Below are positions 15,659-52,945 of a DNA stretch of 64,000 nt, piece by piece. Each line of letters begins with the position of its first letter. The first letter of the stretch is position 1. The position numbers and the translations under genes were made by a program. The notes below the pieces were generated by a model. That model was not told where the DNA came from and ran no database searches. It saw only the letters and a program-made list of their open reading frames with translations. The DNA comes from Escherichia coli (GTDB lineage Bacteria; Pseudomonadota; Gammaproteobacteria; Enterobacterales; Enterobacteriaceae), in assembly GCF_003334305.1 (NCBI RefSeq), contig NZ_QOWS01000010.1, one strand, 5' to 3'.

Positions 15659-16184
15659 AGAGATTACTCTGCCCATAGTCCTCTCCTGTAATTATCAGTC
15701 TGATATTACTTATCCTGGGCAAAAACAGTTTGATTGCGGTAACCCTGTTATCGATAAATTTGTACGCGCATCGCTAAAGAAAAGTGTGCGTAATAGCGAC
15801 TGTGCGGCTAAAGCACTTATTGACAGACAAAGTGGTGAACTGATCGGCATCTGTACTTTTACGGCATATTCGCTGGAAAAACAACGCGTTTCTGGCGTCC
15901 TTCAGGGTTCACAACCTTCAGAAATTGGTGTTGTCAGATTAGTCATGTTGGGGGTAGCACGGAAGTATCAAAAGCGGGGCTTTGGTCAGGACCTACTATG
16001 TGATTTTTTTGAACATGTAAAAATAATTCACCAGGCATTACCAATTAAAGGGGTTTATCTTGATGCTGACCCTGCCGCCATTAATTTTTATGCTCGTCTC
16101 GGCTTTGTTCAGCTTTCAGCGACACCAAATGCTTTTGGTGCTGTACCTATGTTTTTGGCGATTCAGCATATTCTCGCGGCTTAG
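15642..16184 (+). CDS. Putative GNAT-family N-acetyltransferase toxin (TacT/AtaT/ItaT/KacT-like)
   Basis: 180-aa ORF with N-terminal FDCG motif (KQFDCGNPVIDKF), acetyl-CoA motif QKRGFGQ (Q-x-x-G-x-G) and C-terminal NFYARLGF typical of GNAT toxins; SD AAGGA ~10 nt upstream. Confidence 0.85.
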   Translation: MVDKHEEITLPIVLSCNYQSDITYPGQKQFDCGNPVIDKFVRASLKKSVRNSDCAAKALIDRQSGELIGICTFTAYSLEKQRVSGVLQGSQPSEIGVVRLVMLGVARKYQKRGFGQDLLCDFFEHVKIIHQALPIKGVYLDADPAAINFYARLGFVQLSATPNAFGAVPMFLAIQHILAA

Positions 16185-16239
16185 ATTATTATCGCCACCC
16201 GCCAGGGCAAGTTTTGCCTCAGCCGGGGGCTGAGCAGCG

Positions 16240-17175
16240 TTACCACTTTTGTTCAATTGCCCCCGCTTTCAGCAACTCCACATCCTTGCCGTTAATGGTT
16301 GCCGTTGCGGCAACGATTGTGGTCCTTACAGTTGCACAAGATTTTCGCTCAAATTCCGGTTTATAAAGAATAAGAGACGAATTACTGGTAAATGAACCAA
16401 ATAGGTAATCAGTAAAGCTAATATTCAGCCGGTTTAAACCGAAAGGCGCGAAGCCAACCGTTTGGTTAATCTCCTTACCGGATGGGCGACGAATGCTGAA
16501 TGTCACGCGAAGATTGGCCACTTCGCCTAATTTATTGGTGGTGGCGAAGAGGCTATCCATGCAGGAAAAACCTTTATCTAAAAAATTATCTCGCATCCCA
16601 GAACGGGTAACCGTAATCACGGGTAACGTATCGTCAACCGTTTTTCTGTCAATCATGTCTTTTCGACAAGTAGCCAGAAAGTTTTCTGGGCCACCATAAA
16701 TGTGGACACCTTTATCAAGATATTCCTTCGCTTTCTTACAATCTACCTCAACATACTGACCATTGGCGTACATAATGCCCAACCTGGACCATGCTAAATT
16801 CACACCGTGCTGCGCGGCCTGATTAAATAGTGCATACGCTTTGGCATAATCCACCCGCACCTGCTCACCGTCGTAGTAGATACCCCCCAGCGCTAACGGA
16901 GCTTCTCTGTCACCTTGTTTAGCCGCTAACTCGAACCATTTAATCGCTTCCTGAACATCAGGTTTGGTATCATAACGAGGCTGATAATATTCCCAGCCTA
17001 ACAGGCTCTGCGCGTCGATATCTCCCGATTCAGCCATTTTATGCAGTGTATTTATAACATCGGGAGCAGGTTTACCACCGTATATGCTGTCATACAATTC
17101 ATGCGCTTTCTCGCTGGCCACCACGCTTGGTGAAACTATCAGCATTACAGAAAATAATATTCTTTTAGTTAACAT
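16240..17175 (-). CDS. Secreted Sel1-like repeat (SLR/TPR-like) protein with uncharacterised ~150-aa C-terminal domain
   Basis: Start taken at MLTKRILFSVMLIVSPSVVASEKA (signal-peptide-like) within the 331-aa ORF-track frame; Sel1 motifs (AIKWFELAAKQGDREAPLALGGIYYDGEQVRVDYAKAYALFNQAAQHGVNLAWSRLGIMYANGQ); C-terminal ~150 aa has no motif I recognise. Confidence 0.8.
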   Translation of the reverse strand: MLTKRILFSVMLIVSPSVVASEKAHELYDSIYGGKPAPDVINTLHKMAESGDIDAQSLLGWEYYQPRYDTKPDVQEAIKWFELAAKQGDREAPLALGGIYYDGEQVRVDYAKAYALFNQAAQHGVNLAWSRLGIMYANGQYVEVDCKKAKEYLDKGVHIYGGPENFLATCRKDMIDRKTVDDTLPVITVTRSGMRDNFLDKGFSCMDSLFATTNKLGEVANLRVTFSIRRPSGKEINQTVGFAPFGLNRLNISFTDYLFGSFTSNSSLILYKPEFERKSCATVRTTIVAATATINGKDVELLKAGAIEQKW

Positions 17176-17235
17176 GTATACCTTTATGTCCTCACTGTCA
17201 TATATTTCCATAATAATTAACCACCAAACATCCAT

Positions 17236-17576
17236 TTAATGAATAAATACAGTGCCATAAAGGTCCAAGTAATAAGCACACATTTAGCCTGAAACATTAT
17301 CATCCATGTCACCAAATCGTTTATTTAGTGAGATAAAACTAGCATATTCGTAAGATAAAAAATGCACATAGCAATCAAGAAATGATATTATTACTTTTTT
17401 GATGTAAAACTATTTAGTTTTAAAATTCATTTTTTCAACATATAGAGCATTCATTTTATGAATGCAAAAAAACATACCTGACACACAAATTACTCTCCTC
17501 TGTAATATTTTCTCATTAACACTCTGTTTACCCAACATGCGCTCCGCACTACACTATGTGGGCATTTTTTTAAGGG
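17236..17576. other. Very AT-rich intergenic tract (right flank of the islet; likely promoter region for the Sel1 gene and yajR)
   Basis: ~340 bp dominated by A/T runs, with perfect palindrome GCATTCAT-TTT-ATGAATGC at ~17447-17465. Confidence 0.5.
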
Positions 17577-17582
17577 GTGGTA

Positions 17583-18947
17583 ATGAACGATTATAAAATG
17601 ACGCCAGGTGAGAGGCGCGCGACCTGGGGTTTAGGGACCGTATTCTCGTTGCGCATGCTGGGCATGTTTATGGTTCTGCCGGTTCTGACCACGTACGGCA
17701 TGGCTCTGCAAGGTGCCAGCGAAGCATTAATCGGTATTGCCATTGGTATTTATGGTCTGACTCAGGCCGTTTTTCAGATTCCGTTTGGCCTGCTTTCCGA
17801 CCGCATTGGTCGCAAACCATTAATTGTCGGTGGGCTGGCGGTGTTTGCCGCCGGTAGCGTTATCGCTGCGCTTTCCGACTCCATCTGGGGAATTATTCTG
17901 GGCCGGGCGCTACAAGGCTCTGGAGCAATTGCCGCCGCCGTTATGGCGCTGCTTTCCGATCTCACGCGCGAACAAAACCGCACCAAAGCGATGGCGTTTA
18001 TCGGCGTGAGCTTTGGCATTACCTTTGCTATTGCGATGGTGCTTGGCCCGATCATCACTCACAAACTTGGGCTGCACGCGCTGTTCTGGATGATCGCTAT
18101 TCTGGCAACGACCGGCATTGCGTTGACCATTTGGGTTGTGCCCAACAGTAGCACTCACGTACTTAATCGTGAGTCCGGAATGGTGAAAGGCAGTTTCAGT
18201 AAAGTGCTGGCGGAACCGCGGCTGCTGAAACTCAACTTTGGCATTATGTGTCTGCATATTTTGCTGATGTCGACGTTTGTTGCCCTGCCCGGACAACTGG
18301 CTGATGCAGGGTTCCCGGCGGCTGAACACTGGAAGGTCTATCTGGCGACAATGCTAATCGCCTTTGGCTCGGTCGTGCCTTTCATTATCTACGCTGAAGT
18401 TAAGCGCAAAATGAAGCAAGTCTTTGTCTTCTGCGTCGGGTTGATCGTGGTTGCGGAAATTGTGTTGTGGAACGCGCAAACGCAGTTCTGGCAACTGGTG
18501 GTCGGCGTGCAGCTTTTCTTTGTGGCGTTTAATTTGATGGAAGCCCTCCTGCCCTCACTTATCAGTAAAGAGTCGCCAGCAGGTTACAAAGGTACGGCGA
18601 TGGGTGTTTACTCCACCAGCCAGTTTCTTGGCGTGGCGATTGGCGGTTCGCTGGGCGGCTGGATTGACGGCATGTTTGACGGTCAGGGGGTATTTCTCGC
18701 TGGCGCAATGCTGGCCGCAGTGTGGCTGACAGTCGCCAGTACCATGAAAGAACCGCCGTATGTCAGCAGTTTGCGCATTGAAATCCCGGCGAACATTGCC
18801 GCAAACGAGGCGTTAAAAGTGCGTTTGCTAGAAACTGAAGGCATCAAAGAAGTGTTGATTGCAGAAGAAGAACATTCAGCTTATGTGAAAATCGACAGCA
18901 AAGTGACGAATCGCTTTGAGATAGAACAGGCAATTCGTCAGGCATAA
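17583..18947 (+). CDS. yajR: MFS transporter YajR
   Basis: Start at MNDYKMTPGERRATWGLGTVFSLRMLGMFMVLPVL (454 aa); ORF-track frame begins 2 codons earlier at GTG. Confidence 0.95.
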   Translation: MNDYKMTPGERRATWGLGTVFSLRMLGMFMVLPVLTTYGMALQGASEALIGIAIGIYGLTQAVFQIPFGLLSDRIGRKPLIVGGLAVFAAGSVIAALSDSIWGIILGRALQGSGAIAAAVMALLSDLTREQNRTKAMAFIGVSFGITFAIAMVLGPIITHKLGLHALFWMIAILATTGIALTIWVVPNSSTHVLNRESGMVKGSFSKVLAEPRLLKLNFGIMCLHILLMSTFVALPGQLADAGFPAAEHWKVYLATMLIAFGSVVPFIIYAEVKRKMKQVFVFCVGLIVVAEIVLWNAQTQFWQLVVGVQLFFVAFNLMEALLPSLISKESPAGYKGTAMGVYSTSQFLGVAIGGSLGGWIDGMFDGQGVFLAGAMLAAVWLTVASTMKEPPYVSSLRIEIPANIAANEALKVRLLETEGIKEVLIAEEEHSAYVKIDSKVTNRFEIEQAIRQA

Positions 18948-18961
18948 AAAACGCGGCGAAT

Positions 18962-19050
18962 TGCCTGCTGCGCTACGCTTATCAGGCCTACAAAGTTTCT
19001 GAATTACAAACCTTTGTAGGCCGAATCAGGCGTTCATGCCGCATCTGACA
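18962..19050. repeat. REP/BIME element (two inverted REP units)
   Basis: GCCTGCTGCGCTACGCTTATCAGGCCTAC ... GTAGGCCGAATCAGGCGTTCATGCCGCATCTGAC between yajR and yajQ stops. Confidence 0.7.
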
Positions 19051-19074
19051 TGAACAAAACGCACATAGTCGCGA

Positions 19075-19566
19075 TTAATCGCGGAAGTTTTTGAACTGGA
19101 ACGGCTGACCGAGATCGCCACCACGTACCATCGCCATGACAGCCTGCAAATCATCACGAGATTTGCCCGTTACGCGGATTTCATCGCCCTGAATTTGCGC
19201 CTGCACTTTCAGTTTGCTGTCTTTGATCATCTTGACGATTTTCTTCTGGGTCGCGCTCTCAATGCCCTGTTTCAGTTTCGCTTCCACAAACCAGGTTTTA
19301 CCGCTATGAACGATATTTTCCGGTACATCCAGTGAACTGCCTTCAATGCCGCGCTTCAGCAGCTTGGCACGCAGAATATCCAGCAACTGATTGACCTGGA
19401 AGTCGGACTCGCTCAACACTTTGATGGTTTTGCTGGCGTCGTTCAGCTCAAATGAGGCTTCAACGTTACGGAAGTCAAAACGGGACTCCACTTCGCGACT
19501 CGCGTTATCGACCGCGTTACGTGCTTCCTGAAGATCAACTTCAGAGACAATATCGAAAGATGGCAT
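19075..19566 (-). CDS. yajQ: Nucleotide-binding protein YajQ
   Basis: Start at [32 protein letters not shown] (163 aa) within the 219-aa ORF-track frame. Confidence 0.93.
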
Positions 19567-19733
19567 CTTTTCCTCTCCCTTCATTTTTGATGCGAAGCAT
19601 AATACCTGCAAAGTTAAATAACCAACAGTCCTGCACCAGGACGTATCCCTTAATTGTGCATAGTCGCAACAGCATGCACAATTAAGGGATAGCCTTATTG
19701 AACACCCGGAGTGGTTGCGGGTGAGGAGGAACA

Positions 19734-21198
<1,465 letters not shown>

Positions 21199-21251
21199 TG
21201 TCGGATGCGGTAAGCGTCGCATCTGACCAGATGCGACGTTACAACCACAAA

Positions 21252-26963: not shown

Positions 26964-26968
26964 GAGTC

Positions 26969-27008
26969 CAGGCCTGATGAGACGCAACAAGCGTCACATC
27001 AGGCATCG
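26969..27008. repeat. REP-like palindromic element
   Basis: GCCTGATGAGACGC...GCGTCACATCAGGC between the convergent yajO and pgpA stops. Confidence 0.6.
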
Positions 27009-32995: not shown

Positions 32996-33003
32996 TTATG
33001 AAA

Positions 33004-33030
33004 ATGCCGGGATTTATTCCCGGCATTTCA
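33004..33030 (+). terminator. Rho-independent terminator downstream of tsx
   Basis: AATGCCGGGA-TTTATT-CCCGGCATTT hairpin 9 bp after tsx stop. Confidence 0.6.
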
Positions 33031-33057: not shown

Positions 33058-33158
33058 TGCCGGATGCGGCGTAAACGCTTTGTCCGACCCACAAAAGCAC
33101 GTAAATTCAATATATTGCTGAAATAACGTAGTCCTGATAAGCGTAGCGCATCAGGCAA
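33058..33158. repeat. REP elements (two units) between tsx and yajD
   Basis: GCCGGATGCGGCGTAAACGCTTTGTCCGACC and GTCCTGATAAGCGTAGCGCATCAGGCA match the REP consensus family. Confidence 0.6.
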
Positions 33159-52849: not shown

Positions 52850-52945
52850 ATTGCCGGATGCGGCGTGAACGCCTTATCCGCCCTACGCGGTTCTGGCACA
52901 TTTTGCAGGCCTGATAAGACGCGGCAAGCGTCGCATCAGGCATGA
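52850..52945. repeat. REP/BIME element (two inverted REP units)
   Basis: TGCCGGATGCGGCGTGAACGCCTTATCCGCCCTAC ... GCAGGCCTGATAAGACGCGGCAAGCGTCGCATCAGGCATG between araJ and mak stops. Confidence 0.7.

Follow-up and report, generated by a model that had tools for sequence, protein, structure and literature searches.

A partly decayed and fixed REP pair between the convergent genes yajR and yajQ of Escherichia coli

The spacer between the convergent genes yajR and yajQ of Escherichia coli holds a pair of REP units that I read as an old, vertically inherited and partly decayed atypical BIME, in which a Z2 unit and a Y unit stand head to head. This reading, which comprises the identity of the element, its class, its decay, its fixation and its targeting by IS621, I hold to be nearly certain, with a probability of roughly 0.85. 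The element is a known kind of E. coli repeat, identical in sequence to that of the reference strain, and there is nothing new in it. Being fixed, decayed and unique in sequence, it serves as a clean case of a fossil BIME, with little importance beyond annotation.

Results and Discussion

The Junction

The DNA considered in this study, a 64-kb stretch of the E. coli chromosome that I will call the window, runs through lon-clpXP-tig ... cyoABCDE, yajR, yajQ, panE ... dxs ... tsx ... secDF ... phoBR, sbcCD ... ddlA, in an orientation reversed with respect to MG1655. The limits of the yajR/yajQ spacer (Table 1) were taken from the RefSeq annotation of identical sequence. All 127 nt of the spacer were compared with K-12 MG1655, where the junction occupies coordinates 445175-445301, and the two are 100% identical. 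The REP pair is extragenic, lying wholly inside the spacer, and the limits given for it in a preliminary description made from the sequence (18962-19050) are exact.

The MG1655 RefSeq annotation, in the copy examined, has no repeat_region features, and yajQ and yajR have no entries in those parts of the supplements of PMC3333891, PMC11208160, PMC12306157 and PMC6379681 that were available. At the gathering threshold no Rfam family matches the spacer. The sole such match in the window is the small RNA sraA, at 3161-3256 between clpX and lon.

Class and Orientation of the Two Units

The REP class consensus sequences (Y, Z1 and Z2) were those given as query sequences in the Methods of PMC11208160; the Y consensus is also given in PMC12306157. 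Unit a, on the yajR side, matches the Z2 consensus at 29/30 positions (Y, 27/35; Z1, 28/37), its sole change being GCCTGATG to GCCTGCTG, which breaks a stem pair. Unit b, on the yajQ side, matches Y at 30/35 positions (Z1, 25/37; Z2, 25/30). Both retain the REP tetranucleotide, as CTAC at 18988-18991 (GTAG on the minus strand) and as GTAG at 19016-19019, and these ends face each other across a linker of 24 nt. The two inverted REP units proposed earlier are therefore present, and the alignment to REP classes suggested as a check finds a class for each.

The possibility that the pair is a chance palindrome, belonging to no repeat family, can for practical purposes be dismissed. The local alignment scores are 55 for unit a and 45 for unit b, against at most 29 when the whole 64-kb window was shuffled 25 times with dinucleotides preserved; GTAG/CTAC is present in both units; and the window contains seven further units of the same classes.

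Table 1. Positions of the yajR/yajQ element, its parts and predicted folds, and the other REP sites in the window.
Feature	Position	Strand	Description
yajR stop codon	18945-18947	+	RefSeq annotation of identical sequence
yajQ stop codon	19075-19077	-	RefSeq annotation of identical sequence
yajR/yajQ spacer	18948-19074		127 nt, between convergent genes
REP unit a, class Z2	18962-18991	- (GTAG on - strand)	TGCCTGCTGCGCTACGCTTATCAGGCCTAC; on the + strand an iREP ending in CTAC
Linker between CTAC and GTAG ends	18992-19015		AAAGTTTCTGAATTACAAACCTTT, 24 nt
REP unit b, decayed class Y	19016-19050	+ (GTAG on + strand)	GTAGGCCGAATCAGGCGTTCATGCCGCATCTGACA
IS621 natural target, exact	18981-18991	+	ATCAGGCCTAC, 11 nt, core CT, within unit a
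Predicted hairpin spanning the yajR stop codon	18927-18967	+	13 bp, core an 11-nt perfect inverted repeat; RNA MFE
Predicted central inter-unit hairpin or cruciform core	18985-19022		GGCCTACAAAG ... CTTTGTAGGCC, 11-bp perfect; MFE of both RNA strands and of ssDNA; arms in the transcripts GGCCUACAAAG/CUUUGUAGGCC
Predicted 7-bp hairpin	19033-19056		GTTCATG/CATGAAC; loop of unit b and flank motif TGAACAAA
Weak REP-like palindrome, yajL/thiI	21195-21238	+	GTAG-preceded 10-bp stem GTCGGATGCG...CGCATCTGAC, then a partial repeat
Single Z1 REP, yajO/pgpA	26968-27005	+	Z1 33/37; CTAC changed to CTGG (CCAG on + for GTAG); hairpin -23 to -25 kcal/mol
BIME, tsx/yajD	33058-33157		Y (30/35), 35-nt linker, Z2 (29/30)
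BIME, araJ/mak	52852-52942		Y (52852-52886, 34/35), 18-nt linker, Z1 (52905-52942, 35/37)
Single Z1/Y hybrid REP, downstream of rdgC	54930-54967	-	Z1 33/37, Y 30/35; CTAC changed to GTAC; hairpin -23 kcal/mol

Linker and Type of BIME

In a BIME, by definition, a linker stands between a REP and an inverted REP; the yajR/yajQ element, an iREP and a REP 24 nt apart, is such a case. BIME-1 combines Z1 and Y around a long L linker with an IHF site and occurs in single copy; BIME-2 combines Z2 and Y, with a short S linker, in tandem arrays that vary; and atypical BIMEs, in the nomenclature of Bachellier and Gilson, are chimeric, with motifs from both BIME-1 and BIME-2 (all PMC3333891). The yajR/yajQ pair has neither the Z1 unit nor the long, IHF-bearing L linker of the first type. 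Its units, Z2 and Y, are those of the second, without the tandem, strain-variable copies or the short S linker: there is one pair, in a spacer whose length is 127 nt in all the genomes and alleles sampled.

Aligned with the other pairs in the window, it proves to share its whole architecture with the BIME between tsx and yajD: the flank TTTGTTCATG, then Y, linker, Z2 and CAATT. Aligned with the 35-nt linker of tsx-yajD, the yajR/yajQ linker has an 11-nt gap that removes ATTCAATATAT, an IHF-like core. From this comparison within the window I take these linkers to be of the L type. On its sequence, then, the yajR/yajQ element is classed as an atypical BIME with a shortened L-type linker, neither a BIME-1/RIB nor a tandem BIME-2.

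The same comparison bears on an earlier suggestion, that the element acts as an IHF site. An IHF-binding BIME (RIB/RIP, similar to BIME-1) would bend the DNA at the gene ends, and in its favor is the flank-Y-linker-Z2 layout of tsx-yajD, whose linker contains, within the stretch opposite the gap, ATTCAATATATTG, with one mismatch to the IHF consensus WATCAANNNNTTR. In the yajR/yajQ spacer, however, no match to WATCAANNNNTTR with one mismatch or fewer was found; the best have two and lie partly inside the REP units, the 11 nt with the core are missing, and Z2 is present where BIME-1 has Z1. The claim of an IHF function is therefore not borne out, and I regard it as extremely improbable.

DNA gyrase, the other protein proposed to act here, might use the pair as a BIME-2-type site to relieve positive supercoiling between the converging genes. 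The Y and Z2 composition and the position of the pair would suit such a role, and BIME-2 elements have an excess of gyrase cleavage sites, located for the most part in Y units (PMC6379681). But yajR/yajQ has a single pair and no tandem array, its linker and flanks belong to the L-type family rather than S, and decay has gone furthest in the Y unit, the one that gyrase favors; moreover, neither gene is named in the available part of the supplementary text of PMC6379681. A gyrase site is improbable on this evidence.

Distribution and Age within E. coli

The distribution of the element was assessed with a 601-nt query across the yajR/yajQ junction, compared to a population set of 5426 complete E. 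coli genomes. The query is covered to at least 80% in 5285 of them (97.4%), and the roughly 100 rows sampled are all of exact query length, with the 127-nt spacer. The spacer alone is found, at the median, in one place per genome and therefore has no close paralogues.

Alleles were fetched from 11 genomes, including K-12-like strains, BL21, CFT073, ST131, O145:H28 and O157:H7. All 11 have the 127-nt spacer, the same architecture and identical substitutions away from the unit consensus. Because every allele carries the same decay substitutions, the decay must predate the divergence of the sampled lineages. A comparison of REP copy number between strains, proposed earlier for the REP loci of the window, found no variation at yajR/yajQ among the sampled genomes and the 11 alleles; it is araJ-mak and tsx-yajD that vary. 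For the age of the element within Escherichia the sole bound is its occurrence in every E. coli allele sampled, the scan of genera having provided no usable junction from Salmonella, Shigella, E. fergusonii or E. albertii (in the last, the locus is cut inside yajQ).

Among alleles, the units show 0.02-0.04 differences per site, as the flanking coding sequence does, and the linker and spacers 0.08-0.11, the linker (0.114) being the fastest-evolving part. The slow divergence of the units argues weakly for constraint; gene conversion, or the small size and non-independence of the sample, could explain it too.

Two kinds of insertion or replacement, in 139 genomes, account for the approximately 140 genomes in which the junction query is not covered. 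Twelve have IS621 in unit a (see below). The other 127 of the 5426 have, in place of the BIME, an islet of 4 kb encoding two SEL1/TPR-repeat proteins between yajR and yajQ. The islet has its own terminator-like hairpins, and the C-terminus of YajR differs (...EIERVINEVSY). In the example of NZ_CP148366.1 (extracted locus 746-4892) it replaces window positions 18927-19074, and no REP is found at either of its junctions.

Depending on the strain, variable Sel1/TPR islets lie on one side of yajR or the other. In the window, the region between cyoE and yajR (15281-17235) encodes a DUF1778 and GNAT toxin-antitoxin pair and a 311-aa Sel1/TPR-repeat protein, all absent from MG1655, and window positions 10000-20000 are covered to at least 80% in only 1370 of the 5426 genomes.

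Decay of the Units and Predicted Folds

The hairpins that the two units could form on their own are weakened: -9.5/-10.3 kcal/mol for unit a, compared to -13 for the Z2 consensus, and -5.5/-8.2 kcal/mol for unit b, compared to -21 for the Y consensus, most of the stem being lost. Of the stem-loop with an internal mismatch that a REP, as an imperfect palindrome of 30-40 nt, should form, unit a thus retains the ability to fold, and unit b has little left. The other REPs of the window are mostly at -21 to -25 kcal/mol. The MFE folds of both RNA strands and of single-stranded DNA lack the two canonical REP hairpins and have instead the central and the 7-bp hairpins listed in Table 1 and, on the yajR strand, the 13-bp hairpin around the stop codon. 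The preliminary description had spoken of a long palindrome. An 11-bp perfect core and 21 nt at 81% complementarity between the units justify the term in part, but the rest does not pair, because the units belong to different classes.

The predicted hairpins are well conserved in the 11 alleles. The central stem is near-invariant, with one position broken in two alleles; an uncompensated A to T change at 18993 breaks a position of this stem in the CFT073, ST131, O145 and O157 alleles. The 7-bp hairpin is invariant. The 13-bp hairpin that spans the yajR stop codon has its 5' arm in the last yajR codons, and its 3' arm extends over the initial 6 nt of unit a. All 11 alleles retain this hairpin, with a G-U pair becoming G-C in the CFT073-type alleles; it is absent in Citrobacter. 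The composite fold lies well below shuffled sequences, with a z of -5.3 in the yajR sense of the RNA and of -3.9 in the yajQ sense. RNAalifold detected no covariation in the 11 alleles (term +0.18), the hairpins being invariant rather than compensated, and so no structural claim is drawn from the substitutions.

The last codons of yajR (CAGGCAATTCGTCAGGCA) were considered as REP tails and rejected, since the C-terminus that they encode, ...EQAIRQA, has homologues in Citrobacter (...EQAISQA) and Enterobacter (...EQALKA).

The position of these structures raises the question of whether the element acts mainly on the translation of yajR, with structure near the stop codon stalling terminating ribosomes and lowering the amount of YajR. 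Ribosome stalling with lowered output is reported for REPs lying no more than 15 nt from a stop codon (a 15-nt rule summarized in PMC12306157). The stem of unit a begins 15 nt after the yajR stop, and the 13-bp hairpin encloses the stop codon itself in all sampled E. coli alleles. On the other side, 15 nt is at the edge of the rule, the hairpin of unit a is weakened, and the stop-spanning hairpin, besides being absent from Citrobacter, shows only one-sided changes. A main effect on yajR translation seems unlikely.

A Live Target of IS621

The natural target sequence of IS621, with its CT core, has been described (PMC11208160). It is found intact within unit a, and the exact sequence ATCAGGCCTAC occurs just once in the 64-kb window. 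The suggestion that REP elements such as this one serve as targets of insertion sequences is upheld at this very unit: in 12 natural genomes of the 5426 (strain cS108a and 11 others), unit a is occupied by IS621, a REP-specific insertion sequence. The junctions read ...ATCAGGC-CT-IS621-CT-AC..., with CT on both sides of the element. With its ATCAGGCCTAC intact, the Z2 unit is thus a live IS621 target, and the locus shows IS621 inserted in nature at precisely the base that the bridge-RNA target predicts. The BL21-type allele of the target, ACCAGGCCTAC, has one mismatch.

An example of the insertion can be seen in NZ_CM176581.1 (extracted locus 2222-3500). In the genomes bearing IS621 many other Z2 REPs are occupied as well, and a query made from a REP/IS621 junction finds a place covered to at least 80% in 1285 genomes, with up to 27 places per genome.

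Other REP Sites in the Window

Three further REP or BIME sites had been reported in the window, and all three are real, aligning to the REP classes at 26968-27005, 52852-52942 and 54930-54967. The list was incomplete, however, missing both the pair between tsx and yajD and the weak palindrome between yajL and thiI, the class alignments of which (23-26 matches) fall below the shuffle null. The 3' intergenic position ascribed to these elements is confirmed throughout: by the gene map, all six REP or REP-like sites lie between convergent genes, at their 3' ends. A hand count from the same map gives three other convergent junctions, with spacers of at most 55 nt and no REP.

Two of these sites vary between strains. 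The tsx-yajD BIME, which directly follows the tsx terminator at 33001-33028, is part of a query covered to less than 80% in about 1600 genomes; in those sampled, the BIME is absent and the spacer is 139 nt shorter. At araJ-mak, the locus is longer than the allele of the window by 102 nt in K-12 and by 126 nt in ST131, gains consistent with extra REP units, and the near-consensus units of this BIME match at least 38 places per genome. Within 64 kb, then, a fossil BIME stands beside two dynamic ones, one variable in copy number (araJ-mak) and the other in presence or absence (tsx-yajD).

The Junction in Other Genera and the Question of a Terminator

A scan for YajQ in species-representative genomes finds the junction, with yajR and yajQ convergent, conserved across Enterobacterales. 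Enterobacter, Leclercia, Lelliottia, Siccibacter, Shimwellia and others have a spacer of about 30 nt, made up of one A-run, GC-rich hairpin and T-run (in Enterobacter, AAAAAAGCCCGGTTAAACCGGGCTTTTTC), which to judge from its sequence resembles a bidirectional intrinsic terminator. At the junction of Citrobacter werkmanii, C. youngae and Pseudocitrobacter there is no terminator but a REP pair of their own, in the same CTAC-linker-GTAG orientation. BIMEs therefore occupy this junction repeatedly across genera. The Citrobacter pair may not be orthologous to that of E. coli, as the classes differ on each side.

With such relatives, one may ask whether the E. coli spacer is itself a bidirectional intrinsic terminator that merely resembles REPs. 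A T-run does follow a weak hairpin at 19069-19092 on the plus strand, and the minus strand has a run of six U's (18948-18953). But the plus-strand hairpin reaches only -6.9 kcal/mol and is separated by a gap of 3 nt, and the minus strand has none, which leaves both U-runs lacking a strong GC hairpin immediately before them. A terminator scan found no convincing intrinsic terminator in the spacer, giving no more sites than in shuffled sequences, and the sequence aligns to the REP classes as described (29/30 and 30/35). A terminator in disguise is very improbable. The A-run and CGCGGCG after the yajR stop were considered as the left half of an ancestral terminator; a matching right half was not found.

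With a terminator in other genera and a REP pair in E. coli, the junction could become a small test case of whether BIMEs take over the function of a terminator.

A Possible Role at the 3' Ends of Both Genes

Under the preferred reading, that of an old and decayed atypical BIME, the history and effect of the element might be pictured as follows. By analogy with its family, it would have arisen as the sort of REP/BIME DNA on which TnpAREP, the REP-associated Y1 transposase, acts; no RAYT gene is found among the annotated genes at window positions 8000-64000. In its present state the copy number no longer changes, and both units have stem-breaking substitutions common to all alleles sampled. It stands at a junction where related genera keep what looks like a single bidirectional intrinsic terminator.

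The likeliest effect today would be that both convergent transcripts carry at the 3' end a stable block of stem-loops, made up not of canonical REP hairpins but of the central inter-unit hairpin and the two flanking hairpins of the predicted folds. Such a 3' block would impede 3'-5' exonucleases and perhaps read-through. Considering the family and the position of the element, I would give even odds to a role of this kind, which is also the stabilization of mRNA that had been proposed for the REP elements of the window.

A more specific version supposes that the BIME displaced the ancestral terminator in the Escherichia lineage and was then domesticated. The composite fold, consisting of the stop-spanning 13-bp hairpin, the central hairpin and the GUUCAUG hairpin, would form the 3' ends of both genes, the decayed units would have been kept, evolving no faster than coding sequence, because it does so, and the stop-spanning hairpin would couple the translation of yajR to the folding of the Z2 arm. 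I consider this version quite doubtful.

Comparison with Known Elements

The yajR/yajQ element is most like the atypical BIMEs. It has an inverted Y and Z2 with GTAG/CTAC ends facing the linker, it is extragenic at the 3' ends of genes, and its flank and linker are related to those of the L-type BIME at tsx-yajD. It differs in that its linker is 11 nt shorter and both its units are decayed, and also in being a single invariant pair, where atypical BIMEs and BIME-2, as described, have multiple copies and vary. With BIME-2 it shares the Y and Z2 composition, but it is neither tandem nor variable, and its linker is not of the short S type. With BIME-1 (RIB/RIP) it shares the single-copy pair, the Y unit, the L-like linker ends and the flank TTTGTTCATG, but Z2 takes the place of Z1 and the IHF core is absent.

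REPINs, the REP doublets that form one long hairpin and are associated with RAYTs in Pseudomonas and E. coli, offer another comparison. The yajR/yajQ pair is likewise an inverted doublet whose dominant predicted fold is a hairpin between units; in contrast, its units are of two classes, only 11-21 nt of them pair, and there is no sign of recent mobility. Finally, as a target of IS621, a member of the IS110 family, unit a is the same as other REP targets, with the exact 11-nt ATCAGGCCTAC and an insertion bordered by CT on both sides, and in this respect there is nothing unusual about it.
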